From a virus, in the IMG/VR virus record IMGVR_UViG_3300009155_000038: a stretch of DNA of 64,000 nt, one strand, 5' to 3'. Below the pieces are notes generated by a model. The model did not search any database, had not been told where the DNA came from, and was given only the letters and a program-made list of their open reading frames with translations. Position numbers and translations under genes: made by a program. Shown piece by piece: positions 474 through 59,815 of this stretch (its first letter is position 1; every line of letters starts with the position of its first letter).

Positions 474-721
474 TTCTCTTTTCCTATGAACTTGGCCATA
501 AATAGCTCAATTGCCGACCGCGGCAGAGCTTCCGACGCATTAGATTTTGATAACTTAGGCGGCCTCGTATTCACTGTCTGTGAAGTTAGACCGCCAACTT
601 CTGCTTCTGCTTCTATACGGCAGGTTTCAACATATTCCGACCACGCGTCGTAATCGTCTCGGTCCTGCGCTGATTCATACGGGATGTTTGGATCTTCAGG
701 GAGTCTGTCGTTCCAGCCCAT
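470..721 (-). CDS. hypothetical protein
   Basis: 83-aa acidic ORF, overlapping the csrA 3' end and coupled to the downstream ORF. Confidence 0.6.
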   Translation of the reverse strand: MGWNDRLPEDPNIPYESAQDRDDYDAWSEYVETCRIEAEAEVGGLTSQTVNTRPPKLSKSNASEALPRSAIELFMAKFIGKEK

Positions 722-896
722 GATTGTTCTTCTTTTTCTTTTTATCGCCGGTGATTAACTCACCGCGCATGATGGAAACTGCAGAGGGAGCTGTGAGCCC
801 GATCTTTACACGATCACCTTTGATCTCAATGATGCGTACAGTGACGCTATCGCCGATCATGATCGCTTCTTCCATCTTCCGTGATAAAACGAGCAT
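696..896 (-). CDS. csrA: carbon storage regulator CsrA/RsmA family translational regulator
   Basis: MLVLSRKMEEAIMIGDSVTVRIIEIKGDRVKIGLTAPSAVSIMRGEL aligns end to end with the CsrA pattern (E. coli [47 protein letters not shown]). L4, R6 and R44 equivalents are kept. Lys-rich C-terminal tail. Confidence 0.95.
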   Translation of the reverse strand: MLVLSRKMEEAIMIGDSVTVRIIEIKGDRVKIGLTAPSAVSIMRGELITGDKKKKKNNHGLERQTP

Positions 897-911
897 CTTG
901 CGCCTCTTTGA

Positions 912-1583
912 TTATTTAGACAAAGACTGTCGCAACATATCAACGACGTGCTGGGTGTTTCCATTTTTCAGGTGCAAGGCAGCCAGTTGTGCAACGAGCA
1001 ATTCTGTTCTGAACTTGATGGTCTGATTGATGTCTTCGGTCTTCCCAGCCTCGACGTCATAAATTGCACTGAACATCTCTGGATCGTCTGAAAAGTCTTT
1101 GATTGACGTGGACACGTTGGCCACGCGCAGGGCGATCCTCAAGATGTCCGGCGGATTAATGATACCCTCGCCGTCGAGCACAGATCCGATGTAGGCGCGG
1201 ATTTCGTCCGTAAATGGTTCTGGGTCATCATCTTCCGGCGGCGAAATCAGCATGGATTCCGTGATTCCCCACGCCACTTCTTCGGCGTCAGCCGGGTCGA
1301 ACGTGTCGGGTTGGAAGGGGTCGCCGTCGAGGACATTGCAGAAAGCGATGAAGTCCGGCAGCTGTTTGAAGAACCTGTCCGTGGTCAGGAGCTGGATCGC
1401 CACGATGAGTTTGTCGAGCGCCAGCTGCGGCAGATCGACGTCGAATTCTTCTTCGACTTCCATAGCGATGGTAGCCGGCTCCCACGTCAGTGCCTCGGTG
1501 CCGAACCGGTCCAGAAACATCGTCAACAGTACAGTTGCGAATGTTTCCTTACTGCGCCACGCTTCCTGCATTATTTTTGACAT
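912..1583 (-). CDS. hypothetical protein (acidic, helical)
   Basis: 223-aa ORF with strong high-GC3 codon bias like the capsid genes. Confidence 0.8.
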   Translation of the reverse strand: MSKIMQEAWRSKETFATVLLTMFLDRFGTEALTWEPATIAMEVEEEFDVDLPQLALDKLIVAIQLLTTDRFFKQLPDFIAFCNVLDGDPFQPDTFDPADAEEVAWGITESMLISPPEDDDPEPFTDEIRAYIGSVLDGEGIINPPDILRIALRVANVSTSIKDFSDDPEMFSAIYDVEAGKTEDINQTIKFRTELLVAQLAALHLKNGNTQHVVDMLRQSLSK

Positions 1584-1995
1584 GGAACCCTGCTCTGTTT
1601 TCAGCCTTCAGTACGCCCCGGCGGTACAGTTCACTTAAATTGTAGCTAATTGTCTCCATGAACGGGCTGGGTAACTCCATAACAGGCTCGCCCGTTTGGA
1701 GGTCTGTAAAGCAATCTTTACCCGTCCAAGTGCAATATTGGCCGTCCGCGAATACCAGTAGATCCGGGTCGCAGGTTGCGCAGTCTGGCATATCACGGGC
1801 TGCAAGCTCGGTCAAAATAAGTGACCGCTGGGCCGGCTGCAGAAAAGCCAGATTTTCAAGCATGTCGGCGACCAGTAGCGTGTAAATTTCTTGCTTGTCT
1901 AAAACTGTAGCCCCGGGCGGAAATGGTTTATTTAGCGCTGTCGTGAAAACAGTGCGGGCGTGGAGCTTGCTCAATTTGAGCACGGCCATTACCAT
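1549..1995 (-). CDS. hypothetical protein
   Basis: ORF-track ORF 1549..2034. Start moved to ATG 1995 to avoid overlap with the start of the divergent + strand gene; start uncertain. Confidence 0.6.
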   Translation of the reverse strand: MVMAVLKLSKLHARTVFTTALNKPFPPGATVLDKQEIYTLLVADMLENLAFLQPAQRSLILTELAARDMPDCATCDPDLLVFADGQYCTWTGKDCFTDLQTGEPVMELPSPFMETISYNLSELYRRGVLKAENRAGFHVKNNAGSVAQ

Positions 1996-2032
1996 ATCCA
2001 GCTGCAGGTCTTTTTTATCTACGGAGGTTTCC

Positions 2033-2308
2033 ATGATCTCGATTGTCGACTCGCTTTCTCACATTGCGAATGGTCGTGCTGAGTTTGTTGTCAGCGGTAA
2101 TGGTATCGAAGAATTGCTGTCCTCGGCAACGGCGAACACTGTGCTGCAGAAGGCTGCTGAACTAGGCCTCAACCGCCCGGGTGTTTCGAGCGCTAGCGGC
2201 CCGTATCCGGTCGACGCGGAAGGCAAGACCGATGATGAGCTGATGATGGGCAAGCGAGGCCCGGTCGCTGCCTACCGCCGCGATTTTGTTATTTTAGCCT
2301 CGATCTAA
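2033..2308 (+). CDS. hypothetical protein on the opposite strand (MISIVDSLSHIANG...)
   Basis: GGAGG SD 5 nt before ATG 2033, phage-like codon usage, 91 aa, contains QKAA. Confidence 0.7.
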   Translation: MISIVDSLSHIANGRAEFVVSGNGIEELLSSATANTVLQKAAELGLNRPGVSSASGPYPVDAEGKTDDELMMGKRGPVAAYRRDFVILASI

Positions 2309-2690: not shown

Positions 2691-2691
2691 G

Positions 2692-3165: not shown

Positions 3166-3200
3166 GTTGCCAATAGCTAAGGAAAATTGCGCCAGTTTGA

Positions 3201-3283: not shown

Positions 3284-3338
3284 AACAACAACGAAGTCTG
3301 CGCCCCAGCTACAAAGCTAGCGGCGCAGACGTGCCAGT

Positions 3339-5143: not shown

Positions 5144-6448
5144 TCAAGACGTTGCCGCATTTTTTATCGCAGCGCGAAGAGCGGCGTTTGTTTGCACCGC
5201 GGCAATTATGTCATCAATTGTTAGTCCCGGTCCGGTAGCGCCGGTCGCCCCGCGCACGCCGTATGGCCCGGTTGCGCCTGTTGGACCTGTTATGCCCGTA
5301 GCGCCTTTTACGCCAGTTGGCCCCGCCGGTCCTGACAGTCCGGTATGCCCTACACCGGCTGGGCCAGAAGGCCCTGCTACGCCTGTGGCGCCTGTTGGAC
5401 CGACTGGGCCCAAAGGTCCACTGGGACCTGTTGGGCCTGCGGCGCCGTTAACACCCGGCGCGCCATCTGTGCCGCAAGGGCCCGTGGCGCCCGCTACACC
5501 TGTAGCGCCTGTAGCTCCCGCGACGCCCGTAGAGCCTGTAACGCCCGTACTGCCCTTTACTCCGGTTGCTCCTTTGACGCCCGTACTACCTGTATCGCCT
5601 TTAGTCCCCTTTACACCTTTGGGGCCAGATTGCCCTACCGCGCCTTGCGGGCCTTGCGCGCCGGCAGAACCCTGCGGACCGGCGAGTCCCTGCGGACCTA
5701 TTTCGCCGCGTATACCCTGTAAGCCGCGTTGACCCGTAGCTCCGGCGGGGCCAGCGGGACCAGATGCGCCAGTTTTACCTTGGATACCCGTCGCGCCTGT
5801 AACGCCTGTCGGGCCTTTTACACCAGTTGTCCCTGTGGCGCCTTTGATGCCAGACGCCCCTGTAGCGCCTGTAGGGCCCGTTGCGCCGGTTACGCCAATA
5901 CCGGTTGGCCCAGTTGGTCCAGACGGCCCAGTGGGCCCTTTAGCCCCTGTGGGGCCCTTGGGTCCCGTAGCGCCTTTTATCCCGGTGGCGCCGGTAGCGC
6001 CGGTCGCACCTGTAGGGCCTTTTGGTCCGGTTGGGCCGCTAGCGCCTTTTGGTCCGGTTGTTCCCGTAACGCCAGTTGCACCTGTAATACCGCGCGGACC
6101 AGTTAAACCCTGCGCACCCGTTGCACCGGTTACACCTGTCTCGCCCTGCGGCCCGGGATCGCCGGTGTCGCCTTGCGGTCCTTCATTGCCTTGCGGCCCT
6201 GAAGGACCGACTGGGCCCGCGTTACCGGTGTTACCAGTAAGGCCTCTTGTACCCTGCTGTCCTTGCAAGCCTTGCTGGCCGCGTGGGCCGGCTGGTCCAG
6301 CCGGCCCTGCTGGTCCGGGACTACCTTGCGGCCCGGGCGGTCCGGGCGGACTACTGTTGCAGCCGCCAGCCACTTGCATACGTGGGCCGTCGTATGTTTC
6401 ATATACGATGGGCGGCGTGGGCTCAGGCAATTCGTTGTTAGTTTCCAT
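5144..6448 (-). CDS. collagen-like (Gly-X-Y) fibre protein
   Basis: About 375 residues of near-continuous G-X-Y triplets (GPT/GAT/GVT-rich) with a short helical C-terminus ([21 protein letters not shown]). Confidence 0.9.
6081..6124. repeat. 44-nt exact direct repeat, copy 1 (copy 2 at 7210..7253)
   Basis: cctgtaataccgcgcggaccagttaaaccctgcgcacccgttgc is identical in the two collagen genes. Confidence 0.9.
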
Positions 6449-6452
6449 TGTT

Positions 6453-9400
6453 TTATCCTAACATTTCTCGCAGGATGGGCGTTAAGCTGGCTCTGTACGC
6501 CTGCGACTGCGCCGTATTGCGGCCAAGGATCTCAATGAACTTTGTAATAAACGCAGCCTGAAACTCTTCGTTTGTTGCAAGCAACGAGAGATTAACGTTG
6601 ATCGCCGCTGAAAGCGTGTCGTTTGCCGCGTTAATGTTGCCGCTAAGAACAGCCGGCGTTGATGTAATAGCGCCGCCGCTAAGGTTTGCTTTTGGTCCCG
6701 TTGCTCCGGTAGCGCCGTTAACGCCGTTAATGCCATTGAGTCCGCATGGACCAGTTGCGCCGATGAGCCCGGAAGCCCCTGCAACACCCGTTGCTCCCGT
6801 TGCACCCTTGGCACCTGTAGCGCCTGTGCCGCCCGTTAAGCCTATAACGCCAGTCGCGCCGGTTACACCACGTGATCCCTGCAACCCCACCGCGCCCGTG
6901 ACGCCGGTTGCTCCTTGCAGACCTGTTGCACCAGTTGCACCCGTTTGTCCTTGAACACCCGTGCTACCGGTTGGGCCAACTGCGCCGCTAAATCCTGTGG
7001 CGCCAGTTGCGCCTTTATCGCCAACTGGCCCTGATGCGCCACGCGCGCCAGATGGGCCAGCCACACCGGTGGCGCCAGTTGCGCCTGTTATGCCTTGCGG
7101 GCCTGATGGGCCGGCAGGGCCGCTAGCGCCTAGTAGCCCGCTTGCGCCAGTTGCGCCTACAGCGCCAGACGGCCCAGTAACACCAGTCGCGCCCGTGGCG
7201 CCAGTTACGCCTGTAATACCGCGCGGACCAGTTAAACCCTGCGCACCCGTTGCGCCTGTTGCTCCAGTGGGGCCGGTAGCGCCACTTGCGCCAGATGGGC
7301 CGCGCAGACCTGTTACGCCTTTAACTCCTGATATACCTTGAATACCGCTTGCGCCGGTTGGTCCTGTATCGCCTTGTGGTCCTGATGGGCCTAACGGTCC
7401 TGCGACGCCTGACGGCCCCGTAGCACCTGTAGCGCCTGCGGAGCCTGCCGGCCCGGCGTTTCCACGCGGGCCACTTGGGCCACTCGGGCCTGATGCACCC
7501 GTAGCGCCAGCTACGCCTACAGCACCTGTTGCGCCTGTAACTCCGGTTGCGCCAGTTACACCAGACACACCAGACACGCCAGACACGCCCGTCATGCCGG
7601 TGATGCCAATACAACCCGTTGGACCCATTTCGCCTTGTGGTCCTTGTGGCCCTTGCGCGCCCGGTTGTCCTGTGGCGCCTCTATCGCCTTGGCGGCCTTG
7701 AATGCCTTGCTCACCCTGCGGACCTTGCGATCCTTGCGGTCCCGGCCCGCCGTTTTGACCCGGAAAACCTTGAAGGCCCGTTGCGCCAGTTGGTCCGCTT
7801 ACAGTGCTATCTTTACCGTCTTTGCCGTCTTTGCCGTCTTTACCTGCTGGCCCAGACGGCCCGCGGGCACCGTCCGCGCCGGGTGTTCCACCGCCGCCGC
7901 TACCGGAGCTGCTCGGACAATCTGTAACTTTCAGTACGACATCAACATAAATATCGCCGTTTTCAATTTTTGTGTATGTTTTGCCGAGATCTGTTCCACC
8001 AAGTCTCCTGTCGGAGACGCTGCCTTCTGTGCCATACAGCGCGGTTTGTTTAACGTCGAGCGTTAATTTGTATTCGCAGTCATATTGTTGCGACGTAGTT
8101 TGTTTTTCTACTTTTAACGTCGTGTCTTCTGCGTATAGCGGTAAATATGATCCGTCTGCGGCAATGCTACTTGTCCGCGGTTTCGGTACGATATTTACTT
8201 CGGTTTCTTTCCAAACCGGGCATTCTTTTACGGCTTTGACTTTAAAGTCTGGTTGAATACGCCATAAACACTCTGACTCTTGCCAAATTATCAATTCAGC
8301 CGAGTCGGTTTTATTTACGCCAGCTGTAATACTTCCTGTTACTTTTTTGATTTGGAGTTCGCACGGCACCGGAATTGCAATATTCAGATTAGCAACAGTA
8401 ATGCACGAGCCCTGCTCGGCGTTGTAGTATGAGCCGCTTGTATCAAAATAACCGTATGGCACTGAGCCGGTCGGCAGCCTTTGAATGTTCACAGGCCCAA
8501 ACACTGTCGGCGTGCAAACAGGTGGAATAATATTGAGGCGCAAATCAAAATCGACTTCAAAGCGACACTGCGGTTCACCTCCCGTATTTGTGATGTGAAC
8601 GGGTCTAATTTCAAAAATTAAATCGTTATAGCCAGCCCGCGTGTCAAATTGCCTACTAGTAAAATCAATACTAACGCACTCAATGATCGGGATTGGAATA
8701 TCGATAAACAAGTCAAAGAAAAAACCGCACTGCCCGGGGCTTGAACACGTTGGCGTAGCGGGATACGACGTGATATTTATGTAGCTGTTTGTGTTAACGC
8801 TTGAAATCTGATTGGCAGCAACAAAACTATTCTGCGCGTTAAGCTGTCCCGCGATAGACGGACACGGCGGCACCGGGAGCGGCACAACAATTTCGAGTTC
8901 GATATCGAATGAGCATGTTTCTTTTGGCACGTTGCAATCGTGAGAGGTCGCGATTGTTTTCTTGATTTCTAGTTTGTTTGTTTTACCCGTAACGCAACTA
9001 GTGCCTACATAACCGACGCTTGTGGTAAACGATTTCTTATTGATCTCGATACACGGCGGACTCGGGATCGGCACAACGACCTGAAGCTCTACATCAAACG
9101 AACACGTCGGCGGCCCGCAGTCGTTCGGTATAAGCTTTGGCGTGATGGTGAAAACGTTTGAGTTTTGAGTAACGCAGGTTGAATCCTCATACCCGGCAAT
9201 AACACCAAATGTTGTGACATTAATTTCCGGGCACGGCGGTATCGGGATCGGGATTACAAGTTCAAGGTCGATGTTGAAGTTGCAGTTATCCGGCGTAGTG
9301 CAGCCGTCGCGCGGCACTGGATCGCTCTCAATGACAAACGTGCTTTCTGGCAGCGGGCAATCTTCCGCAGCCCATTGCACCTGCTGCGTGAATTTGCGCC

Positions 9401-17961: not shown

Positions 17962-19836
17962 TTATGTGGCACTGTAAACAATTCCGCTAATTCTTAACAC
18001 GCCGACTTCGGCGTATACGTCGGCTGTGTTTTCTGCGCGGCCAAGCGTTACGAGCACAGTATCGCCAGCTTCGATTTGGAATTCAGCGCTGTCTACTTGC
18101 GCAACCGTGTCAAGTCGCAACGCCAAGGCGGAATTAAAACTAAGCGATGTGTCAGTAGTCGGCAGCGGCGAACCGCCCGCGGCGGGCTTTGGCAGCCGGC
18201 GATAGCTCATGTATAGCGCAGGCAGAGTCGCCGCCTGTGTCGGTGTGCCGCCGCGGCCGAAGAAACGCACACGAATTTTCATCCGCAGATTATCGCCAAG
18301 ATTGCTGTCGGCAACGTTGAGCCGCACGCGCAGCAACGAACCCTGCCCAGCTGGGAAACCAAGATACGGAATGTCCATATACAGACGCTCGACCGTGTCG
18401 CTCAGCCGAATGATTTGCGGCGCTACTTCTCGTTCAACCAGCGCGTCTGTGTAGTCGATTTTCAATATGCCTTGTTGCAGCGGCACTACCGCCGTCGTGG
18501 GCATGTTTAGGTCTTCAAGCTCCGCTACGGTCAGATTGCGCTTTACACCGCGCGTGCCAGTAATGCTGATCTGGCCGGATGTTGTAAACGCGCCCTCGGT
18601 TACCCAGCCAGCTTTAAGCTTTTTACCCGCAACAATTTCTTTGATTGCTTCGCCGCCGATGGCTTCTTCGGCAACACGTTGCAGATTCAAATTAAGCGCT
18701 AAGTCACCCGTAGATCCCGGCTGATCATTGCAATTCAAGATGGTGATTGGGCTATCGGGGCCGGGCACAAGGCTGGTTACGGCGTTACGATCATTGCCCA
18801 GCAGCATACGCAAGAACACCACCGAGATGCGCATGCGCTCATCGAGCGGGCAGGCAGTAGGGTCAAACGGTGTAACAGGCGCGCTAGGATTGATATTTTC
18901 CGGCCACGGTGTTTCACCTAAGCAACTGGACATCCACCAAATACCGTTGGTGTCACAAATCACAAGACCTGTCGGGCCGAGCGGCACTTCACCAGCGCCG
19001 TGTTGGTACTCAGCCCTATCCCATAGCACGGCAACGGACTGGATTGGCAACGGCGGCCACACGTTGGCAAGCGCCTGATGCTTTTTGATGTTGTATCCAA
19101 ATGCTGCGCCGGCAGGAGCTTTGCCGTTAAAAATAGCGTTACTTGCGGGCAACCAGCCGGGCAGGTTTGGATTTTCGGATACGATTTGTGCGTGCGTTTT
19201 ACCAAAACGCTGCGTTGTCGATAAGCCAGCGCCAGCCGGGCGTGCTACAAGTTCAAATCGGTAATGTGTGTGCTCAGCAATAAAATCTCGCGGTGTCGGC
19301 ATCACAATGACACGCGGGACGTCAGAGCAGTTGTCTTTTGGGCCCTGAACGTAGCACACGCCTACGCTAACGCCGGGGCGCTGTTTGACGAGTTTACCGG
19401 GCTCCACACCAGACAGGTAATACCGGCCGGGCGAGATGGGCGCGACAATAGCGTTAGTCAGTTCTGGGATGCTGACGATGCCGCGCAGCACAATGTCGCC
19501 GAGCGTCTCAGACTTTTTATGCAGGCAGATGCCAACGCAGTCTGATGACGGCTGTACAACGAGCGCCTGCGTTGTCTGATCGACCGCAACAGCCGCCAGC
19601 GCGGATTCGTACCGGTGTGTTGTGTAATTCCAAAAAACGGGCTGCCCGGGTAGTACGGACGGTGCAATTGTGGCGTCGGAATCGAACAGTGCCTGCCCGA
19701 CAGCGGCGGCGTCCAGACGATCCTTCAAATAGTCGGTACGCGCGGCCAGCGTTTGATCTGGGCGGTTAACAACCCCTGCCTGCACAGGCTCGCCGGGGTT
19801 GACGTACTTTATGTTATTAAGCCAGTTCCCGGACAT
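17962..19836 (-). CDS. putative tail-fibre/baseplate attachment protein
   Basis: N-terminal AGVVNRPDQTLAARTDYLKDRLD resembles the fibre N-terminal anchor motif (NR...LA.RT.YLK) of myophage fibres; GGAGG SD. Confidence 0.6.
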   Translation of the reverse strand: MSGNWLNNIKYVNPGEPVQAGVVNRPDQTLAARTDYLKDRLDAAAVGQALFDSDATIAPSVLPGQPVFWNYTTHRYESALAAVAVDQTTQALVVQPSSDCVGICLHKKSETLGDIVLRGIVSIPELTNAIVAPISPGRYYLSGVEPGKLVKQRPGVSVGVCYVQGPKDNCSDVPRVIVMPTPRDFIAEHTHYRFELVARPAGAGLSTTQRFGKTHAQIVSENPNLPGWLPASNAIFNGKAPAGAAFGYNIKKHQALANVWPPLPIQSVAVLWDRAEYQHGAGEVPLGPTGLVICDTNGIWWMSSCLGETPWPENINPSAPVTPFDPTACPLDERMRISVVFLRMLLGNDRNAVTSLVPGPDSPITILNCNDQPGSTGDLALNLNLQRVAEEAIGGEAIKEIVAGKKLKAGWVTEGAFTTSGQISITGTRGVKRNLTVAELEDLNMPTTAVVPLQQGILKIDYTDALVEREVAPQIIRLSDTVERLYMDIPYLGFPAGQGSLLRVRLNVADSNLGDNLRMKIRVRFFGRGGTPTQAATLPALYMSYRRLPKPAAGGSPLPTTDTSLSFNSALALRLDTVAQVDSAEFQIEAGDTVLVTLGRAENTADVYAEVGVLRISGIVYSAT

Positions 19837-19844
19837 CCTTGTCC
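19831..19844 (-). promoter_or_regulatory. CsrA-type binding hairpin GGAC-AAGGAU-GUCC overlapping the start codon of 17962..19836
   Basis: Contains ACAAGGAUGU, the core of the CsrA SELEX consensus RUACARGGAUGU, in a 4-bp stem with a hexaloop, 3' of the GGAGG SD. Confidence 0.75.
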
Positions 19845-34672: not shown

Positions 34673-34688
34673 AAGTAATCCTTTACTT
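34673..34688 (-). promoter_or_regulatory. CsrA-type hairpin AAGUA-AAGGAU-UACUU over the RBS of 33692..34672
   Basis: 5-bp stem with an ANGGAN hexaloop directly before the ATG. Confidence 0.6.
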
Positions 34689-38168: not shown

Positions 38169-40976
38169 TCAGACCACCAAGTGCAGCTCAATGTTGTTGA
38201 GCGGCGCCGGGACAACAAGATCAAGAACAATTTCGATCCGATCTTTCAACAGCGGATGAATCTGCAGCGTACGGATCGTACCGGAAATGAGCTGCGAGCC
38301 CAGTTCGTCGGTGAAACCGTTCGTAGACAGGAAATTAATCACGGCGTTAACTTCGTACTTCAGCCGGCGCACCATGCCGTCTTGCGCGTTGGTGCGGCCG
38401 ATGAACGGACGCAGGCGACGCAGGAACAGGTAGGACATGCTGTCCACGTTGCGGCGGATCATTTCTTCACGACGATTCAGGTCGAGATTGTCCGTCGTCA
38501 AGGCGTGCCGTGTGTACGGCGTGCCGTCCTTGTCTTCAGTCACGATCCAGACACCCGACTCGGCCAAGTTGTTCAACTGTGTTTCGATGAAATACTTGTA
38601 CGACCGGCTGTAATCATCGAAACCAGCGACTTCCACGTTGGTCAGCGGCTGGTGGGGCACAACACCCGACACCAAACCGGCCAGCGCGGCCGACAGGTAG
38701 TAACCGGGCTGCAGCGTGCCAGCCTCGCCAACCTGATCGGGCCACACGCCGCACACGCGTCGATTCGACAGCGATCCGCCCTGATGGGCGATATCGGTAG
38801 CCACTTCGTTGCGGTTACGGTTGTGGTAGATCTCAACGCGCTGCGCAACTGTCACAGCCACGTCGCTGCCGGTATACAGCAGCAATGTCGACTCAGACAG
38901 CACCTTGTCGACGACGTACTCTTCGTACTGCGCGTCGCCAAAAGAATCGACCGTGAAGTTGTACCGGACGAGGTCGCCGGGCTGCACGTTGTTGGTGATA
39001 AAGTAGCCGTTACCGCTTGTAACCTGCAGCTTTGTGAACTGCGTGCCGGAAGCGGTCGGATCGTCGCTCAGCGTGGCAACAACGTCGTCTTCCACCACGT
39101 TGCCAAGCACGCCGCCGATTTCAACACCCATACCAACGAGCTTGACAACCGGGTGCGCCTTGAGCGAGAAGAAACCGGCCTTCCAGTTATTCTGAATCTC
39201 GTTCGATTCGGCACCGATGTGCGCAGCCCACAGGTTTTGAACCATGCGGTCAAACGTCAGCGGAACAAGGTTGTACAAGTCATCGCGACCCTTGATTCGC
39301 TCAAGCACCTGCACCCAGCTGTCGAGATTGCCGGGATCGGCGACCGCGGTGTACTTCACAACCGTGCCGTTGCTGTTGGAAAGCGCCTTGTAAACGCCCC
39401 ACTTCAACGGGTTATCGGGATCGAGCTGACCAGCGATTTGGTCAAGATCAGCCACGTCGCTGATCGACTCAACCGTGTCGGTCAGCGTCGACAGCCACTC
39501 ACGGTACTCGACGTAAACTTCGCCGGCGTAAACGTCGAGCGGCTGCTCGACTCCACCGTCGGTCCACTCGGGGTGATACGCGATCACGCCTTCGTTGACG
39601 ATGATCTGCGTAGCTTCAACTTCGTAATTCTTCATCGGCGCAAAGCCAATGCGGTTCTTGGATACTTCGATGTTGTCCTTGATGAACAACTTCATCTCAA
39701 GGTTACAATTACGGCCACGCATGGCAACCGGAAGATCGTCACGCAGGTGGATTTCGTGAACCTCGCCAGCCTTGCTCGAAACGCAAGTGATGTACCACTT
39801 GTCGCCCTTACGCAGCCCGCCGTCATTCGTGAACTTAACCTTAACACCGTTGGTGCCGATGGCAACGCTGGTGTTCTTCGCCGAGATTTCAGTCGGACCT
39901 GAGAAATCGAGGCCCTTAGATGTGTACACCGTAATTTCCGGCAGGTCGGCATAAAGGCCGCCCTTCGTGCACTCAACGATATAGATATCATTCTTATCGC
40001 CGGTGTACGCGCCGAGAAGATCGGGCGAAACCTCGTCTGTGGTGTAATTAGCCGCGTCAGCAACGGCAACACCTGCCACGAACGTTTGCTGCACAACGAT
40101 TCGCCACTTCTGGCCAACCTTCAGCAGGTTAACGTCGCTGAACGTAATGACAAGGTCACGCGTGCCAACGTCAGCATTGTTGCCGTAAGGCGTAACTTCC
40201 GCTACGTCATCGGTGCCGCTGGCGGACACAACACGCAGGCGGGCAGCGTCACAACCCACAACGGAGCTGCGCACTACTTCAACTGTGTACTCTTCCTTCA
40301 CGTGGCCCGACACCAAACCGTCATAGGAAGTGCTAAGCGTCGCTGTCGGCGCGTCAGACACGAGCCCCGCAATAAGCTCAACGCTCTGCGCCGCTGTGAT
40401 TGAGGGCTGATTGTGCCCTTCAGCGCTCGCAGGAGCAATGCGCGACTTAACGTTGTCGCTGGAGAAGCCGGTCACAGTCGACCACAGCTCAGTAGCAGTG
40501 CAGTCGCCCGGAGAAACGTAGGTCATGTGAACCACGTCGCCGAGCTGCACGTCACGGTCAGCGAACACGCCGCTGCGGGGGTAAGCCGCGCCGTTCGACT
40601 TGAACGCAAGATTGTGCGAACGCACGATGTTGTTTTCAGGCCGATCGTTCGGGCTGTACACATGAAGGCTGCCGCAGCTGTACGGAGTTGCGTCAACAGC
40701 GGTGTTGTAATAGAGGAGCAGCGCGTCGTCGATATACACCTTGGTGTACTTGTCATCGATGCGGGAGCCCGGATTCCGCTGCGGCCACGAGTACGTCGTG
40801 TCGTGCAGGCGGTCATAGGCGCCGAGACGCGTGTAGGGCTTCTCGTCAACATTGCTGTGACGGTGAAGAACAGCGTGAGGGCCGGCGATGTGAGCGCGCA
40901 GCGGCTCCGTGATCTCCGTGGGGACGATCTTGAATTCTTGGAAAACGAGAACTTGTGGTTTTACGTAGCTCGACAT
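38169..40976 (-). CDS. contractile tail sheath protein
   Basis: 935 aa; C-terminal QLNNLAESGVWIV...RHALTT...RNVDSMS...DRIEIVLDLVVPAPLNNIELHLVV is typical of sheath proteins. Confidence 0.9.
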   Translation of the reverse strand: MSSYVKPQVLVFQEFKIVPTEITEPLRAHIAGPHAVLHRHSNVDEKPYTRLGAYDRLHDTTYSWPQRNPGSRIDDKYTKVYIDDALLLYYNTAVDATPYSCGSLHVYSPNDRPENNIVRSHNLAFKSNGAAYPRSGVFADRDVQLGDVVHMTYVSPGDCTATELWSTVTGFSSDNVKSRIAPASAEGHNQPSITAAQSVELIAGLVSDAPTATLSTSYDGLVSGHVKEEYTVEVVRSSVVGCDAARLRVVSASGTDDVAEVTPYGNNADVGTRDLVITFSDVNLLKVGQKWRIVVQQTFVAGVAVADAANYTTDEVSPDLLGAYTGDKNDIYIVECTKGGLYADLPEITVYTSKGLDFSGPTEISAKNTSVAIGTNGVKVKFTNDGGLRKGDKWYITCVSSKAGEVHEIHLRDDLPVAMRGRNCNLEMKLFIKDNIEVSKNRIGFAPMKNYEVEATQIIVNEGVIAYHPEWTDGGVEQPLDVYAGEVYVEYREWLSTLTDTVESISDVADLDQIAGQLDPDNPLKWGVYKALSNSNGTVVKYTAVADPGNLDSWVQVLERIKGRDDLYNLVPLTFDRMVQNLWAAHIGAESNEIQNNWKAGFFSLKAHPVVKLVGMGVEIGGVLGNVVEDDVVATLSDDPTASGTQFTKLQVTSGNGYFITNNVQPGDLVRYNFTVDSFGDAQYEEYVVDKVLSESTLLLYTGSDVAVTVAQRVEIYHNRNRNEVATDIAHQGGSLSNRRVCGVWPDQVGEAGTLQPGYYLSAALAGLVSGVVPHQPLTNVEVAGFDDYSRSYKYFIETQLNNLAESGVWIVTEDKDGTPYTRHALTTDNLDLNRREEMIRRNVDSMSYLFLRRLRPFIGRTNAQDGMVRRLKYEVNAVINFLSTNGFTDELGSQLISGTIRTLQIHPLLKDRIEIVLDLVVPAPLNNIELHLVV

Positions 40977-40981: not shown

Positions 40982-40993
40982 AGCCTCCGTGCC
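40982..40993 (-). promoter_or_regulatory. CsrA-type hairpin GGC-ACGGAG-GCU over the sheath RBS
   Basis: CANGGANG core with a C-G closing pair and a 3-bp stem. Confidence 0.5.
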
Positions 40994-41023: not shown

Positions 41024-41032
41024 TAGTATACA
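41024..41032 (-). promoter_or_regulatory. candidate late promoter element TGTATACTA
   Basis: Identical 9-mer also at 44202..44210; both are intergenic, upstream of structural operons, and contain a TATACT -10-like hexamer. Confidence 0.4.
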
Positions 41033-44173: not shown

Positions 44174-44201
44174 GGCAACCCTCCAGAGTGAAGTACACAC
44201 T

Positions 44202-44210
44202 TAGTATACA
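44202..44210 (-). promoter_or_regulatory. candidate late promoter element TGTATACTA
   Basis: Lies just downstream of the capsid-operon terminator and 29 nt before the adaptor start; same 9-mer as 41024..41032. Confidence 0.4.
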
Positions 44211-45069: not shown

Positions 45070-46041
45070 TTACTTGAAGTCAACGCGAGCCAGACCGTTC
45101 GTGTGACCGAACGAGCCGCCTTGCGTGTTGTAGGCGAAATACTCAAGCATGTAAGCTTCACGACGGATGTACATCGTGGTGGGCTCAAGCTCGTAGTTCT
45201 TGCCAATGAACTTGGGGCTGGCAAACATAAACAAGCTATCATCGGGGATAAGACCCGTATTAGCTGGCTGCGTGGTGTCGCTGATACCTTCCGCGGCCCG
45301 ACGCTTGATCGTGACGATCCAGCGGCAGTTGAGGAAGTTAGTCTCAGCCCAGCCGTTCTTGATGATGTCCTGCGAGAAGTCACCGCCCATTTCGTCGCGA
45401 CCGAACTTGAGGATTTCCTTGATCGTGATGTTATTCACGAGGCAAGTTTCAACCTCAAAGTGCGAAGGCGTACGGGGCATGACCTTCAGGGCGTCAACAA
45501 GCGTCTCACGCGTGATGCCACCGCTGATCTCTTCATACTGCACCGAACCGGAAGCAACGTTCGCCACGCCCGGGGTCGGGAGGACGGCGTTGAAAGCGGC
45601 GATGAACTTCGAGTCTTCCTCGGCGAGCATGTCCTTGATCATGTTGTCGCTGAGAACCTGACGAATGTCGATGACATACGTACGCAGTTCGTCGACGTCC
45701 TTCACAGCGCGGGGCGACACGATCCGGTCAAACATGACGCGGTAGCGCGGGCCACGGATGTAGAAGTTGATCGGGAGTGTCGCAAACGGGAGCGACACAG
45801 CCGCCGGGGAATCGGGCTCCTTGTCCACAACCTTGACGGGCTTGTCAGTGTCAACCTGACGGTCCAGCTCGTCGTTGGTGATGGTCAGCGGGGGCATAAT
45901 CCGACGATAGAAACCGTCTTCACGCATCTTGGTGCGCGTGAAATCGTTAACCGCGTCGATGGCCTGCTTCTGCATGCCGGGGGTATCGAGCTGCTCAAAC
46001 AGTGTCTCGTTGAGCAGTTGTACTTCTTGCTGTGTGGGCAT
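45070..46041 (-). CDS. major capsid protein (HK97-fold-like)
   Basis: 323 aa, strongest codon bias in the window, downstream of protease, scaffold and decoration genes; true start ATG 46041 with GGAGG SD. Confidence 0.8.
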   Translation of the reverse strand: MPTQQEVQLLNETLFEQLDTPGMQKQAIDAVNDFTRTKMREDGFYRRIMPPLTITNDELDRQVDTDKPVKVVDKEPDSPAAVSLPFATLPINFYIRGPRYRVMFDRIVSPRAVKDVDELRTYVIDIRQVLSDNMIKDMLAEEDSKFIAAFNAVLPTPGVANVASGSVQYEEISGGITRETLVDALKVMPRTPSHFEVETCLVNNITIKEILKFGRDEMGGDFSQDIIKNGWAETNFLNCRWIVTIKRRAAEGISDTTQPANTGLIPDDSLFMFASPKFIGKNYELEPTTMYIRREAYMLEYFAYNTQGGSFGHTNGLARVDFK

Positions 46042-46045: not shown

Positions 46046-46061
46046 GGAACCTCCATGTTCC
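46046..46061 (-). promoter_or_regulatory. CsrA-type hairpin GGAAC-AUGGAG-GUUCC over the major capsid RBS
   Basis: ACAUGGAGGU matches the (A/U)CANGGANG(U/A) consensus; 5-bp stem with hexaloop. Confidence 0.75.
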
Positions 46062-46654: not shown

Positions 46655-46668
46655 AGACCTCCATGTCT
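46655..46668 (-). promoter_or_regulatory. CsrA-type hairpin AGAC-AUGGAG-GUCU over the decoration gene RBS
   Basis: ACAUGGAGGU consensus match; 4-bp stem. Confidence 0.7.
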
Positions 46669-53725: not shown

Positions 53726-54049
53726 CTACTCGGCGATAATGTAGTACACCGTTGCGGGATCTCTAGGCGACAACGCGTCATAACCAGCTTGGGTGATTTT
53801 GACGATGTTTGTAAGAACTGTCGCGCCTGTAATGCCGGTAGCGTCACTCTCAACGTAGTTGTTCGCGCCATTATCGCCACTGATCTGTACAGCTGTTGTG
53901 TCGTCAAGGCCGGCGTACAGTTTGTTTGCTGCCTCGTCGTACAGCATCTCGCCCGGTTGCACGTTGATCGGCGTCGGGTCTAACGCGCTAACAACCTCTC
54001 GGCGTCGGTTCGGAAAATGCAGTGCGCGGAATACACGTGTGTCAGGCAT
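53726..54049 (-). CDS. small fibre-module protein
   Basis: GEMLYDEAANKLYAG and ITQAGYDALSPRDPATVYYI are short motifs typical of phage fibre shafts; start ATG 54049. Confidence 0.55.
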   Translation of the reverse strand: MPDTRVFRALHFPNRRREVVSALDPTPINVQPGEMLYDEAANKLYAGLDDTTAVQISGDNGANNYVESDATGITGATVLTNIVKITQAGYDALSPRDPATVYYIIAE

Positions 54050-54050: not shown

Positions 54051-54068
54051 ATATCGCTCCGTAGATAT
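54051..54068 (-). promoter_or_regulatory. GGA-loop hairpin AUAUC-UACGGAGC-GAUAU over the RBS of 53726..54049 (possible CsrA site)
   Basis: 5-bp stem; 8-nt loop containing ACGGAG. Confidence 0.4.
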
Positions 54069-54498: not shown

Positions 54499-56886
54499 TT
54501 AGGAGTTTGCAACAGCGCCAAGATCAACGTCCGCACCAGACTCTTCAGGATACGGCTCAATAGTCTTCTGCTTGAGGAACAGAATCACGTCGCCGAGCAT
54601 CTCAAAGGCGTTGCGCAGCGAATCTTCCAGCTCCGGCATATCAGCCTTGCCGTACCGCTCAGCGAACCGGTCGCCGTGCCAGTAGAACATGAACAGAATG
54701 CGGCCCAACTTATCGAGTCCCTTGGTCAGGTCGCCCATGTAGCGGTCAACGAGCCCGTCGTCACGCACAGCGCGCAGCATGCTGCCGATCATCGCCGTGT
54801 CGAACACTTCCTTCTGGCCCGACTGCGCAGCGTCGATAACAGACCGAACGTCTTTGTTATCAAACATCGGGTTCGGGTTATAGATCTGGCGATCTGTCTG
54901 GCTGGCGCTCATGCCAGTTACCGGCACGCCAACGTCGATACCCAGCTGCGTCGGAACGCTGGAACCCATGATTGTCTCGCCGCCCATAACCGGACCCGGA
55001 TCACTCGGGGCGTTAGGAGCGCTATTAATCATCATCGGGCCGCCGTACGGGTCGGCATACTTGATACGCCCTTCGTACTTGCGCTTGGCCGATGCAGTCT
55101 TGAGGATCTCGCGGGCCTCGGCTTCGCGTAGACCGTGATGCTCAACGAGCGTGACCAGCGCCTTAATCGGGCTGACGGCAGCTTCTTTGTTAATGCTGAC
55201 TTCCGTGCCGCTGTGATACACAGTCAGGCTGGCTGTCTTCTGCATGATGGCCATCTGTGCGTCGGCGATATTGCCGGGCATCAGCGGCGGATCTTCGCTA
55301 CCGCCGCAGCCGCAGTTTGGCTTATCTTCCGACAGCTCGCTGGCCGGCACGTCGTCTTCGCCAAGCTTGCACTTGAGAAGCTTGTAACCCTCTGGCACAA
55401 AGATGTCGCCCATGCTCGCGCGGAGCTTGGAGCCCTTGCTGGTGCCAAGATGGACGCGCACGCCGTCACGATACTTGCTGTAGTTCAGCGGATCGTTGTA
55501 GCAGCAGTCGCCGATATGGCCCTTGGGCGGGTGCTTCGAGTGGTCTTCAAGATCGACTTCGTAAGATTTCACGCCGAATTCGCTCTCGCCGTACTCACGA
55601 ATCATGCGAACCGGCACCGTAGCGTCGCCGTTCTTGTTGATCAGCATGTACCGGGAACTGTTGCTCGGTAGGCTGCTTGCTTCCGGCAGACCGTCAAACC
55701 ACTTGGTGAACTCTTCGTCTTCGATCTTGAACAGCGCAAACACTTGGTCAGCGCGGGTGTTGACCCAATCAGGGCTGCCTTCGGTGCGCACCACGGTGAC
55801 AAAGTCAGCGCGCTTGGCAGCAGCTTGCGGAAACACGGCCACGTAGCAGCGCTCAATGTTGCCGCCCTTGACCAGAATCTCGTACAGGCCGCTTTCGCTG
55901 GGCGTAAACAGCTTTTGCTCAAATTGAATGTTGTACGGCACCGAGACGTTATCATCGCCGCGCTCATCCTTGATCAGCACGCCGTCACGAAGCAACTTCT
56001 CTTGGTCTTCTTCGCTGTAACCGGCCGGGAGCTTTGTCTGCACCGTAGTGTCATACGAAATAACTTTCAGGCCAGACTGCGCTTTCGGCTTCTCGGGCGC
56101 CTCGGACAGCACACTGGCAATCTTGGTCTGATTCTCGCGCGTCTTGGCGATGGCAATAGCTTCTTTAATGATATCTAAGCCGTGGAACTCCTCGATGGCG
56201 CTGGCAATCTGCGGGGCGTGCTGGCATGTCTTAACCAGCATTTCCAGCGTTGTCAGGCGGGCTTCCTTGAGGAATGTTGCCAAATTCAGCGTCTTGCCCA
56301 TATCAGCAAAAGCCGACACGGTGTTCATCGTGGCGGCCTTAGCAAACGCCGGCATGGCCTCGTCGACCATTTCCTTGAGCGTGGGCTTGGCCGACCCGAA
56401 CTTAGCCGGACTGCGCGACAGCTGTGTAAAGTCAGGCTGGCGCTGGCCGAACTGAGACAGATTCTTGTCAATGCCGCTGCCCATGATGTTGGGCTTTCGG
56501 TTAACGAGATAGTTAATCCAGTTTTCCTTGAGCGGCACAAAGATATCTTGGTTCTTGATGTACAGCAGCTCGTGGCCCTTCAAGTCGCCGTTCAGGAAGA
56601 ACACCGGCGCGTACAGCCACAGCGAACCGACCTTGAACGCGAACACGGCTACTGCCTTGGTGTTTTCGCGATTCCGGTCGAGAAGCTGGAAACCGATTTC
56701 GTGATCCAGCAGCTTCGGAGCCGAGTCGCGCAGATAGGCGTGAGCCAGATTGCTAAACGACTGCTCAAACGAGGTGTCGTCGCCCTTACCGCCAAGGTCA
56801 GCCTGCTTTGTCTGGCTCCGATCATGTGACCGGACGACAGTCAGCCAATGCTTATACGACGATTCTTTGGTCTTTTTGTTGTACAC
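54499..56886 (-). CDS. large putative virion (internal head) protein
   Basis: About 795 aa, high-GC3 codons, K-x-A motifs; GTG start 5 nt after GGAGG. Confidence 0.65.
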   Translation of the reverse strand: MYNKKTKESSYKHWLTVVRSHDRSQTKQADLGGKGDDTSFEQSFSNLAHAYLRDSAPKLLDHEIGFQLLDRNRENTKAVAVFAFKVGSLWLYAPVFFLNGDLKGHELLYIKNQDIFVPLKENWINYLVNRKPNIMGSGIDKNLSQFGQRQPDFTQLSRSPAKFGSAKPTLKEMVDEAMPAFAKAATMNTVSAFADMGKTLNLATFLKEARLTTLEMLVKTCQHAPQIASAIEEFHGLDIIKEAIAIAKTRENQTKIASVLSEAPEKPKAQSGLKVISYDTTVQTKLPAGYSEEDQEKLLRDGVLIKDERGDDNVSVPYNIQFEQKLFTPSESGLYEILVKGGNIERCYVAVFPQAAAKRADFVTVVRTEGSPDWVNTRADQVFALFKIEDEEFTKWFDGLPEASSLPSNSSRYMLINKNGDATVPVRMIREYGESEFGVKSYEVDLEDHSKHPPKGHIGDCCYNDPLNYSKYRDGVRVHLGTSKGSKLRASMGDIFVPEGYKLLKCKLGEDDVPASELSEDKPNCGCGGSEDPPLMPGNIADAQMAIMQKTASLTVYHSGTEVSINKEAAVSPIKALVTLVEHHGLREAEAREILKTASAKRKYEGRIKYADPYGGPMMINSAPNAPSDPGPVMGGETIMGSSVPTQLGIDVGVPVTGMSASQTDRQIYNPNPMFDNKDVRSVIDAAQSGQKEVFDTAMIGSMLRAVRDDGLVDRYMGDLTKGLDKLGRILFMFYWHGDRFAERYGKADMPELEDSLRNAFEMLGDVILFLKQKTIEPYPEESGADVDLGAVANS

Positions 56887-56887
56887 G

Positions 56888-56903
56888 GCCACCTCCATGC
56901 GGC
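56888..56903 (-). promoter_or_regulatory. CsrA-type hairpin GCCGC-AUGGAG-GUGGC over the RBS of 54499..56886
   Basis: CAUGGAGG core; 5-bp stem including one G-U pair. Confidence 0.7.
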
Positions 56904-56969
56904 GCAGCTGCGAAATATCACTCTGTATAATTTACAGGGTTTCGGCCTCTATATCCTACCCGAATGTAG

Positions 56970-58844
56970 TTAAGGCTTCCACCCACTCGTCGTGCCCGTT
57001 ACGCCGAACTGCTCTCCGCGAGCCAATGCCGGCACGTAACTGCTGCTCGCTGTGTCCGAGCTTAAGCCACGGTGCACGCTATTCATCAGGCCTTTTTCTT
57101 GATACGACCCCAGCATACGGGTCATCCAATCAGTGTCGTTAGAGATGTTCGACATACCGCGCACCATCTCCGGCTCAAACGGCGGCGGCTCTTTGTGCGC
57201 TTGAATATTGTGAACGCCGTACTTATTTAGATTAGCTGCGACGTTTTTGCCAATTTTTGTGCCGATAGAATAATGCAAGACGGGCTGTTCTAAGTAGTGC
57301 CCGACCATAGCCTGCGGCGCGCCAGATACTGCGCCCGCGCGCGGCTGCCAGTTTCGTTCCAGCGCAGAATATGGCACGATATCGTCTGGCACGTAATCGC
57401 CGTGCTCGTCGGTCAGCCGCACATGGTTAATGAGCCCACGCGCGAGCAGCTCTACATTACGACGGTGCGACGAAATACCGCTGTTTTTCATGACCTGCTG
57501 CATCGCCTGCACGAAATAGCGCCGGCCTTCGCCGATACCTTTGTGCTTCACGACTTCAGCCGGACTGGGCATGCCGCTCGAAATAACATCGCCGGCTTCT
57601 AGTTCGTCGCCCTTTTTAACGCTAACTTCTCGGTCAGCCGAGACGTAATGGTCTTGGCCGTTGACCTGTACGTAAAACCCGCCTTGCGGCGCCGGCCTTA
57701 CTTCTTGCACACGGCCGTCGACTTGCGTGTGCGTCGCACCATTTGGGTATTTCTTCGGTACCTGAACCAGAGCGTTGAGCGCTTTGAACCCCGAAATAGC
57801 TCCTGCGCCACCCACACCGCCAGAGTGCTTCGAGCTAATCTGGCTTTGCGTTACCGGCTCAGAAAGCGCCTGCGCAGCGGCAATACCGACATAGTCACCA
57901 ATCGGCGGTAATCGATGCTTTTCCCGATATCCCACGTCCTTGGCAAAAACACCGCCATCTGCCGGGCCGCCCACTAATGGGCTGCGGACTAAGATATCTT
58001 TAACCCCCATCTGTTTCATATCTCGCAGGATTTTGGGGGTTAGCAGTGTGTCGCGCTTGTACGGCCCCACAGGTCGCGACAAAAACGCGCCCTCGTTATC
58101 TACGTCGTCTACATCGGTCGGCATCCCGCGGTCGTGAGCTGTGGCATTGCGCTCTGCATCATCCTCATCGTCTTGAGTCACAAGAAGCCGATGCGTCATT
58201 TGCGTTAGCTGCTTGCCGAAAAATCCAGCGTCAGCCGTAGCGGTCTTTAAATCCATAACGCCCTTGCGGGTGCCGAATGCGCCGGCAAAATACTCTACCG
58301 GGCGCAAACCTTGTCCGTAGCCATGCGTTACCGGAATTGGAATCGGCTCGCCGCGGTGATCGAGATACTGCATATCAGCGCCGATAAGGCTATTCAGCGA
58401 GAATTTATTACCTCTGCCCACGCCATGCACTTGTTGGGCAAGCGGGTTATCCTCCCCGTGCGACTCGGCAAATACTTTCTCCACAAGATCGCGCTGCGCG
58501 TTTGACGCCAGTTCCAACAGGCGCAGATCTCGCTCTTTGTCGTCGATACCGCGGTCGGCAAATAGTTTCTGCAGATCGCCGTGCATCTTGAGCTGGGCGT
58601 TGCGTACGGCCAGTGTCGGCTTAATGTGCTTTAGCCCGAACGACAGACCATTTGTTGTGTAACTGGCGTCCTTGCCGATGTCATGCAGCTTTTTCATAAC
58701 CGGCCGGTACTGATCCGGGTACTTCTCGGCTAGCTGCGTCGCAAGTTCTGCCATCTTTTTCTTGGTCAGAACCCGCTCGTGGTCGCGCATGTCGGGCGGC
58801 AAGGCCTCGTTAATCAGAACTTGTCCGAGCGTTGTTTTGAGCAT
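56970..58844 (-). CDS. phage multisubunit RNA polymerase, beta' C-terminal portion
   Basis: TTLGQVLIN, bridge helix YFAGAFGTRKGVMDLKTATADAGFFGKQL, trigger loop GIAAAQALSEPVTQSQISSKHSGG, and RRNVELLARG; start ATG 58844 coupled to the upstream TAA. Confidence 0.92.
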   Translation of the reverse strand: MLKTTLGQVLINEALPPDMRDHERVLTKKKMAELATQLAEKYPDQYRPVMKKLHDIGKDASYTTNGLSFGLKHIKPTLAVRNAQLKMHGDLQKLFADRGIDDKERDLRLLELASNAQRDLVEKVFAESHGEDNPLAQQVHGVGRGNKFSLNSLIGADMQYLDHRGEPIPIPVTHGYGQGLRPVEYFAGAFGTRKGVMDLKTATADAGFFGKQLTQMTHRLLVTQDDEDDAERNATAHDRGMPTDVDDVDNEGAFLSRPVGPYKRDTLLTPKILRDMKQMGVKDILVRSPLVGGPADGGVFAKDVGYREKHRLPPIGDYVGIAAAQALSEPVTQSQISSKHSGGVGGAGAISGFKALNALVQVPKKYPNGATHTQVDGRVQEVRPAPQGGFYVQVNGQDHYVSADREVSVKKGDELEAGDVISSGMPSPAEVVKHKGIGEGRRYFVQAMQQVMKNSGISSHRRNVELLARGLINHVRLTDEHGDYVPDDIVPYSALERNWQPRAGAVSGAPQAMVGHYLEQPVLHYSIGTKIGKNVAANLNKYGVHNIQAHKEPPPFEPEMVRGMSNISNDTDWMTRMLGSYQEKGLMNSVHRGLSSDTASSSYVPALARGEQFGVTGTTSGWKP

Positions 58845-58845
58845 A

Positions 58846-59085
58846 TTACGGCGCCCAGACAATGTTTTCGATCGGCTTTGGTTTAAATTCTGAAACTGCG
58901 ACTGTCTTATTAATGCCTAACGCCTGCAAAATTGAGTGAAAGTCTTTTTCGCCGGGCGTTGAATACACAATCGCCTCATCAAGCTGAAGCGCTACAAAAA
59001 TAGGGTTGCCCAGATCGTCTTCAACAACGATGCTGTGCGCTTTTTGTTCTGTAGGCTGCAGCTTGTACTGCGTCTTAATGTGCAT
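58846..59085 (-). CDS. small hypothetical protein between the RNAP fragments
   Basis: 79 aa (MHIKTQ...), ATG overlaps the upstream ORF end. Confidence 0.65.
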   Translation of the reverse strand: MHIKTQYKLQPTEQKAHSIVVEDDLGNPIFVALQLDEAIVYSTPGEKDFHSILQALGINKTVAVSEFKPKPIENIVWAP

Positions 59086-59800
59086 TCCCGGACAAGCTCC
59101 GCAACATGGCCGCAGCGGCACTCGCCTTGGTTTGCAGATCAACCGCCGGCGACTCCACAGTGCTGGTTACACTGCGATCAACCGGGTGCCCGATGTAAGA
59201 CGCTGACTTGTTGTATTCATTAGCCAGATCCCACCAGCTAGCTACCTTACCCGCATTGGGGTCTTGCGGCGGGGCGCTGGGATCCATGGGACCGCCCGGA
59301 GGCAGCGGACCACCCGGAGCTTGCGGGCCTTGCGGCGCGCTGGGGTCTTGCTGCGGGGGTGGCGGCGCCATCGGACCACCGGGAAGTGCCGACTCAGCCG
59401 GCGGTGCGCCCGGCGAACCCGGAGGCAGAACCAGCGATTCTGGCGGAACTTGCACGCCCAGCGCGTTCATAATCGCCGTTAACTGCTGCTGCATGTTGTA
59501 CAGCCGGTAATCCAACATGTTCATCATCTGCTCAGGCTTGAGCTTCTGTACGGCAGCGGCGCCGGGAGCAGCACCGGGCGCCGCGGGAGCAGCTGGAGCC
59601 GCGGGTGCAACAGGGGCTGCGGGAGCAACAGCACCCATAGCTGCCGGGTCAACAGGCGGAGCGGCGGCAGCCGGATCGGCGGGAGGAGCCGCGCCCATTG
59701 CTGCGGGGTCCACGGGGGCGGCTGCGGGCGGCGGGAAATCAGCCTCTTTTACGAGGCGCGCTGCCGCTAAGGCAATAAGTTCTGGGTTAACTGTGTACAT
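59075..59800 (-). CDS. Pro/Ala-rich low-complexity protein between the RNAP fragments
   Basis: 241 aa, AAGGAGG SD, PAAAP/DPAA repeats bounded by VKEA, GKVA and NKSA. Confidence 0.75.
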   Translation of the reverse strand: MYTVNPELIALAAARLVKEADFPPPAAAPVDPAAMGAAPPADPAAAAPPVDPAAMGAVAPAAPVAPAAPAAPAAPGAAPGAAAVQKLKPEQMMNMLDYRLYNMQQQLTAIMNALGVQVPPESLVLPPGSPGAPPAESALPGGPMAPPPPQQDPSAPQGPQAPGGPLPPGGPMDPSAPPQDPNAGKVASWWDLANEYNKSASYIGHPVDRSVTSTVESPAVDLQTKASAAAAMLRSLSGNAH

Positions 59801-59801
59801 G

Positions 59802-59815
59802 ACTCCTCCTTGAGT
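59802..59815 (-). promoter_or_regulatory. CsrA-type hairpin ACUC-AAGGAG-GAGU over the RBS of 59075..59800
   Basis: UCAAGGAGGA matches (A/U)CANGGANG(U/A); 4-bp stem. Confidence 0.7.

Follow-up and report, generated by a model that had tools for sequence, protein, structure and literature searches.

Does a bacteriophage that carries csrA direct the encoded protein at its own mRNAs? The question is raised by a 64,000-nucleotide (nt) stretch of viral DNA (IMG/VR record IMGVR_UViG_3300009155_000038; hereafter the window), which contains a csrA gene close to one end and, on the minus strand where nearly all of its genes lie, a set of small hairpins placed over ribosome-binding regions. A preliminary description of this DNA had proposed that the hairpins, in which the GGA of a Shine-Dalgarno (SD) sequence is displayed in a loop, make up a CsrA-controlled regulon of virion genes. 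Our analysis of the window and of related phage genomes suggests that the hairpins are CsrA operators through which the phage CsrA, possibly together with that of the host, would restrain the translation of abundant phage proteins. Judging from the sequence patterns set out below, we place the probability of this reading at about 0.58.

The csrA gene (696..896, minus strand) encodes a 66-amino-acid (aa) RNA-binding protein of the CsrA/RsmA family, with matches to PF02599 (1.4e-19) and to phrog_9500, annotated 'CsrA-like regulator' (2.3e-15). The Pfam match scores 70.2 bits against a curated cut-off of 27 and covers positions 1-48 of the 53 in the profile. Residues 1-51 of the phage protein align, at full length, with E. 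coli CsrA (1y00), to which it is identical at L2, L4, R6, V40, R44 and E46, with conservative changes at three further positions (K7, I42 and L47). The equivalents of L4, R6 and R44 are therefore retained, as had been claimed.

All ten of the hairpins listed in the preliminary description are present on the minus strand at their reported positions, and six of the seven principal ones are closed by a C-G pair, again as described. The hairpin of the major capsid gene (GGAAC-AUGGAG-GUUCC, 46046..46061; start codon at 46041) is the predicted lowest-energy fold and accounts for 75% of the ensemble, and that of a gene for a 795-aa protein of the head module (GCCGC-AUGGAG-GUGGC, 56888..56903; GUG start at 56886) appears in both the lowest-energy and the centroid folds. 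Further hairpins precede a 188-aa 'decoration' gene just upstream of the capsid gene (AGAC-AUGGAG-GUCU, 46655..46668; start at 46650), a gene for a Pro-rich protein of 241 aa (ACUC-AAGGAG-GAGU, 59802..59815; start at 59800) and the tail sheath gene (GGC-ACGGAG-GCU, 40982..40993; start at 40976), where the stem has 3 base pairs (bp) in the window; neither the decoration hairpin, in its 48-nt context, nor the sheath hairpin in the window is the lowest-energy fold. The remaining two principal hairpins belong to a 624-aa 'fibre anchor' gene (GGAC-AAGGAU-GUCC, 19831..19844, lying over the start codon at 19836) and a 326-aa 'tail chaperone' gene (AAGUA-AAGGAU-UACUU, 34673..34688; start at 34672). 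For the former, a competing CCGGA/UCCGG stem, whose 11-nt loop contains two GGA motifs, is predicted to have the lowest energy; for the latter, the prediction adds one A-U pair to the stem and reduces the loop to 4 nt (AGGA). Three other sites had been listed as weaker and are weak indeed, having 3-bp stems or loops other than hexaloops: AUAUC-UACGGAGC-GAUAU, with an 8-nt loop (54051..54068; start at 54049), and UGUU-AGGAUAA-AACA, with a 7-nt loop (6449..6463; start at 6448), are both absent from the predicted fold, and ACU-CUGGAG-GGU (44178..44189; start at 44173) has 3 bp, at a site where many relatives carry ACACGGAGGU with 3-bp AAC/GUU or UAC/GUA stems.

The number of such hairpins was compared with null models that preserve the SD sequence. 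Around a curated set of 54 minus-strand starts, the ribosome-binding regions contain 32 GGA sites; in six of these a stem of 4 bp or more encloses an NNGGAN hexaloop, so that GGA occupies loop positions 3-5. Swapping the 5′ arms among sites gives an expectation of 0.92 such hairpins, shuffling the 5′ arm with the loop and SD side held fixed gives 0.73, and the rate at 564 other minus-strand GGAs gives 0.74. The comparison that had been suggested as a check thus yields six hairpins against 0.7-0.9 expected (P ~1e-4 or lower). This enrichment is limited to a single register, as other loop sizes and registers merely recount the same hairpins with one bp more or less.

Covariation among relatives provides a further view of these structures. 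Orthologous ribosome-binding sites from IMG/VR relatives were brought into anchored alignments, with a slid pairing partner serving as the control. Across 36 distinct relatives, 89% of cells in the capsid stem are paired, compared with 24-64% in slid controls, and the covariation score is 0.45 rather than 0.06-0.21. Compensatory changes occur at four of the five pairs, giving stems as different as GGAAC/GUUCC, AGAAC/GUUCU, AAGAC/GUCUU, GCAC/GUGC and CGAUC/GAUCG, while the closing C-G pair and the loop residues A, G, G, A and G are invariant. The decoration stem is paired in 86% of cells (slid controls, 26-54%; 37 relatives), likewise with compensatory changes at four of five pairs, and that of the 795-aa protein in 96% (25-49%; 25 distinct relatives), with a compensatory double switch from CCGC/GUGG to CAGC/GCUG and a conserved G-U pair. 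At the Pro-rich gene the figure is 73% (29-58%), and five different stems occur, those of orthologues including AAAC/GUUU, CGAC/GUCG, UUAC/GUAA and UAAAC/GUUUA around ACGGAG or AUGGAG loops. The short sheath stem of the window is represented in relatives by covarying stems of 4-5 bp (AGGC/GCCU, GAGGC/GCCUU and UCAGC/GCUGA) and also by a GGC/GCC variant. The earlier claim that the stems vary in sequence yet stay paired holds for these five loci and is not supported at the other two. The fibre-anchor hairpin is kept in 11 relatives without any variation in its stem, because the 3′ arm is coding, and the tail-chaperone hairpin is not conserved in any of 26 relatives, and may be lineage-specific or due to chance. 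The G-U pairs, together with the differences in stem sequence from gene to gene, indicate that the pairing acts in RNA rather than as a shared DNA operator. The hairpins at these five loci are selected RNA structures.

The sequence displayed by these structures corresponds to a known binding motif. The consensus for RsmE/CsrA is (A/U)CANGGANG(U/A) (PMC6849547). The invariant core of the covarying hairpins, CANGGAGG (C-A-N-G-G-A-G-G), is flanked by an A-U or sometimes a U-A pair, which equals (A/U)CANGGANG(U/A), and the five covarying loci thus bear out the proposal that the sites follow the CsrA/RsmE consensus with GGA in a hexaloop. Four sites (capsid, decoration, Pro-rich and fibre-anchor) match the consensus exactly, whereas those of the 795-aa and sheath genes conform to CANGGANG with a G in place of A or U at the 5′ flank. 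In the window as a whole, the strict pattern WCANGGANGW occurs 11 times against 4.5 expected, a count reached in none of 100 shuffles.

If CsrA recognizes these hairpins, their abundance might be expected to follow the distribution of the gene. Searches of the whole records of relatives with Pfam recovered intact csrA orthologues in ten related genomes (G001-G008, G010 and G016) and a divergent copy in G014. The orthologues have diverged to 33-62% identity, yet all retain the MLVLSR N-terminus and the R44 equivalent. The same search did not find csrA in G011, G012 or G013, each of which is at least 90% complete; back-translated peptide patterns, also used to look for csrA kin, matched just one unrelated contig. 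We then counted hairpins of at least 4 bp in nine whole relatives, using one automatic gene and start caller for all. Every one of the four csrA-bearing genomes is enriched: G002 has 11 hairpins against 2.4 expected, G006 has 8 against 1.8, G007 has 14 against 3.6 (P < 0.001 in each case), and G005 has 8 against 3.7 (P = 0.03). None of the three csrA-less genomes shows a significant excess (G012, 5 against 2.9 expected; G011, 2 against 3.7; G013, 2 against 2.1), nor does either of two incomplete genomes that yielded no csrA (G009, 4 against 1.9; G015, 5 against 3.3).

Only loops with an initial adenosine contribute to the excess. In the csrA-bearing genomes, hairpins form at 32 of 218 sites with A at loop position 1, 7 of 138 with G, and 2 of 193 with C or U (non-A total, 9/331), whereas A-loops number 0 of 170 in the csrA-less genomes (Fisher P = 4e-9). 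Non-A loops occur at the same background of ~2.6% in the two groups. A guanosine at loop position 1 would retain the hexaloop, and the preference for A therefore exceeds the needs of the hairpin itself; it fits the A-N-GGA-N recognition expected of CsrA.

The relatives also alter the picture of which genes would be controlled. Candidate hairpins do lie on virion genes, as the preliminary description had it, but in G002, a complete close relative, they also accompany genes for thioredoxin-like, HNH and acetyltransferase-like proteins and several genes of no assigned function, and the set is therefore not purely a virion regulon. The leader of the HNH-endonuclease-like gene of G002 (~87,735-87,830, minus strand; L084), in a region outside the part homologous to the window, has two consecutive hairpins of 7-8 bp, both with ACGGAU loops and 27 nt apart, the second of which covers the ribosome-binding site. 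This loop is presumably the same as that of the hcnA site bound by RsmE.

Several hairpins are associated with csrA itself. In G006 and G008, the ribosome-binding site of csrA lies inside an AAGGAG hexaloop hairpin, as expected if the gene were autoregulated. The G006 gene (L075/L078, ~11.3-11.7 kb), whose hairpin is AUCGA-AAGGAG-UCGAU, encodes a 163-aa protein with two tandem CsrA domains; such a protein would be a single-chain 'dimer', consistent with a dimeric functional unit. In the window, a 7-bp hairpin with an ACGGAA hexaloop falls within the first codons of csrA (870..889, minus strand; WCANGGANGW match at 875-884) and is a possible autoregulatory site, although it was not seen at the same place in G002. 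The gene is flanked by a conserved 223-aa gene and by an 83-aa gene whose start overlaps the end of csrA, an arrangement common to four close relatives; in the window the overlap is 26 nt (696-721, minus strand). A C-terminal HGLER sequence that is conserved among the CsrAs of the clade was considered as a partner-docking motif and rejected, as it overlies, in another frame, the conserved sequence (MGWND) with which the 83-aa gene begins.

We propose that a subset of phage mRNAs would present the GGAG of the SD in a 6-nt A-N-G-G-A-G loop closed by C-G on a stem of 3-6 bp, with the capsid, decoration, 795-aa head protein, Pro-rich and sheath genes providing the clearest candidate operators. A dimer of CsrA, most likely from the phage itself and possibly from the host as well, would clamp the GGA loop and thereby block binding of the 30S ribosomal subunit, lowering the translation of abundant phage proteins until late mRNA outnumbered CsrA or some other form of relief intervened. 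Binding, repression as the direction of control, its timing and the identity of the CsrA that acts are what we infer from the hairpins, their consensus and their company with csrA.

A number of observations weigh against this reading. The hairpins are thermodynamically weak: in 48-nt contexts only those of the capsid and 795-aa genes form as proposed in the lowest-energy folds, and all ten contexts fold no better than shuffled versions of themselves (z-scores near 0). Most leaders have one GGA site, while CsrA dimers usually bridge two, and in those of the capsid, 795-aa and sheath genes no further GGA is in a loop. A clear second GGA hairpin (UAUU-GUGGAA-GAUA, 59832..59845, minus strand) occurs in the Pro-rich leader alone; it is located 30 nt upstream of the first and is identical in G002, with a conserved GGAAGAUAA stretch in relatives; the spacing of the two hairpins would suit bridging by one CsrA dimer. 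No sponge RNA of the CsrB/RsmZ type was found in the window, where no Rfam family reached threshold, and a hairpin scan of G002 detected no sponge-like cluster of multiple hairpins. The SD sequence GGAGG by itself dictates the closing G and loop position 6. Hairpins also turn over quickly between distant csrA-bearing genomes, and the comparison of G007 with its sister G009 (csrA not found, 84% complete), in whose orthologues most G007 hairpins are missing, is therefore uninformative. On the capsid tree the three genomes without csrA group together as one sister clade, and the co-distribution therefore amounts to a single phylogenetic contrast; several intermediate lineages are represented by contigs that are 46-84% complete and in which csrA was not found, among them the hairpin-rich L042/L045 contigs, just 46-78% complete. 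The co-occurrence of hairpins with csrA, which had been put forward as a check, holds within this phage group and does not extend to PhiXhv-12: this unrelated csrA-bearing jumbo phage of Xanthomonas has 1 hairpin against 3.2 expected, and the circuit is therefore not general to phages with csrA. Phage Arash, a distant relative without csrA, has 6 against 2.9 expected, a non-significant difference involving stems of U-runs and A-runs.

The chief competing explanation is that the hairpins work without any protein, tuning translation or mRNA stability, with the likeness to CsrA sites arising as a by-product of a GGAGG SD joined to a stem. Such hairpins could expose GGAG in the loop, act as a mild brake on 30S loading, or shield the 5′ leaders of very abundant mRNAs. 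The SD-determined bases, the weak stems and mostly single-site leaders, the lack of such hairpins in PhiXhv-12 and the dependence of the co-distribution on one clade split all speak for it. In addition, a C or U in the first loop position would make the loop smaller by pairing with G6, and the bias toward A is therefore partly structural. That argument does not extend to G at the same position, which keeps the hexaloop and yet is associated with hairpins three times more rarely than A. Moreover, the csrA-less sister clade has the same orthologues with strong SDs and lacks the hairpins, and some loops contain GGAU, GGAA or GGAC, which are poor SDs, or lie upstream of the SD (59832-59845; G002 near 87.7 kb). 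We regard protein-independent tuning as unlikely overall, though it is the main rival to CsrA control.

Alternatively, the hairpins might serve another RNA-binding factor of phage or host, with csrA acting only to reprogram the host. Phage T4 provides precedents for both a repressor and a nuclease of this kind: RegA represses at ribosome-binding sites, and RegB is an endoribonuclease that cuts GGAG in SD sequences. Most genes of the present phage match no known function, which leaves room for such a factor. However, searches of four csrA-bearing relatives, run without a positive control, gave no match to RegA (PF01818) or RegB (PF10715), the conserved core agrees exactly with the CsrA consensus, and csrA is the one recognizable RNA-binding regulator that co-occurs with the hairpins; a different factor therefore seems distinctly improbable. 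The simplest alternative, that GGAG SDs happen to have complementary flanks, is plausible at single sites, such as that of the unconserved tail chaperone or the weak sites with 3-bp stems or irregular loops. As an account of the whole set it is exceedingly improbable, given six hairpins observed where SD-preserving nulls predict ~0.8, covariation at five loci and replication in four other genomes. Chance is refuted for the five covarying sites and could still explain those at 34673-34688, 54051-54068, 44178-44189 and 6449-6463.

The gene content of the window places these candidate operators in a particular type of virus. The capsid protein (45070-46041, minus strand) shares 28% identity (tblastn) with its Salmonella phage Arash counterpart, the major capsid protein; among GenBank phages it has only distant kin, namely Arash and Vibrio phages, at that level of identity, and megablast of the window against GenBank phages gave no match. 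The longest open reading frame for the capsid begins at the AUG in the hairpin loop (AUGGAG, 46056), and the start with proper SD spacing is the in-frame AUG at 46041, five codons downstream; relatives with an ACGGAG capsid loop have no upstream AUG. The 935-aa sheath protein (38169-40976) matches the sheath families phrog_2839 and phrog_279. Two large proteins (59824-63966 and 56970-58844, minus strand) match RNA polymerase beta-subunit families (phrog_3295 and phrog_2987), and both match phrog_25354, which suggests that the phage has a multisubunit RNA polymerase resembling those of phiKZ-like jumbo phages; the Pro-rich gene sits between these two genes. IMG/VR contains 66 related loci, on contigs of ~155-235 kb, several of which have terminal repeats. 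These contig sizes and the capsid, sheath and polymerase matches identify the window as the arm of structural genes in an uncultured jumbo myovirus of ~200 kb. Metagenome-assembled genomes that hold related phage contigs (L288-L291) are labelled uncultured Aquaspirillum sp., Nannocystaceae bacterium and 'bacterium WB9_2_064'; CsrA matches occur in all three, with host and phage contigs counted alike, which makes them weak evidence concerning the host.

Exact copies of TGTATACT, which resembles an extended -10 promoter element, occur upstream of the sheath gene (41025-41032, minus strand) and of the gene starting at 44173 (44203-44210, minus strand), the latter copy following a strong terminator-like GGGCUGGCC/GGCCAGCCC hairpin and appearing as conserved UUUGUAUACU in relatives. 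We considered TGTATACT as a shared promoter and rejected it, as these are the only two exact copies and there is no overall excess.

The proposed arrangement has features in common with established CsrA systems of Pseudomonas and E. coli. In RsmE-hcnA and CsrA-glgC/cstA (PDB 2jpp family), as here, GGA is held in a short hairpin loop over the SD, the core is (A/U)CANGGANG(U/A), and the regulator is a CsrA of ~60-70 aa with L4 and R44. Unlike those systems, the present one would have both the regulator and the candidate targets, virion and other phage genes alike, encoded by a jumbo phage of lytic type, usually with one site per leader and with no CsrB/RsmZ-type sponge in the window. In Bacillus subtilis, CsrA lowers the translation of flagellin (hag) through an SD-containing hairpin site, and FliW completes the circuit. 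The likeness there lies in the target, a structural protein that self-assembles and is made in large amounts; our analysis identified neither a FliW homologue nor any other antagonist, and a partner switch is pure analogy. By that analogy one might imagine a self-contained post-transcriptional switch for virion proteins, tied to assembly or to the load of late mRNA and workable in hosts that lack CsrA, an extension we consider rather improbable. RegA of T4 is likewise a phage-encoded repressor of several phage mRNAs at their ribosome-binding sites, but belongs to an unrelated protein family, acts on early genes and has no hairpin-loop GGA operator.

Phage-borne csrA is itself not new. It has been reported in 30 of 2517 phage genomes, with no function assigned to the alleles and no phage targets described (Sobrero and Valverde, 2020, PMC7366521), and we find 33 GenBank phage records with a csrA match. 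What distinguishes the present case from those alleles is that candidate cis-sites are defined on the phage's own mRNAs, and our literature search found no paper on a CsrA regulon among the genes of a phage. Should the rather improbable self-contained switch for virion proteins exist, this would be the first virus to use CsrA to govern the synthesis of its own structural proteins. Given conserved candidate cis-targets on the phage's most abundant mRNAs and a sister clade with neither csrA nor the hairpins, the question of why phages carry csrA becomes directly testable. If the hairpins are confirmed as CsrA operators, the expression programmes of jumbo phages would gain a post-transcriptional layer, and the hairpins would constitute compact, orthogonal translational operators.

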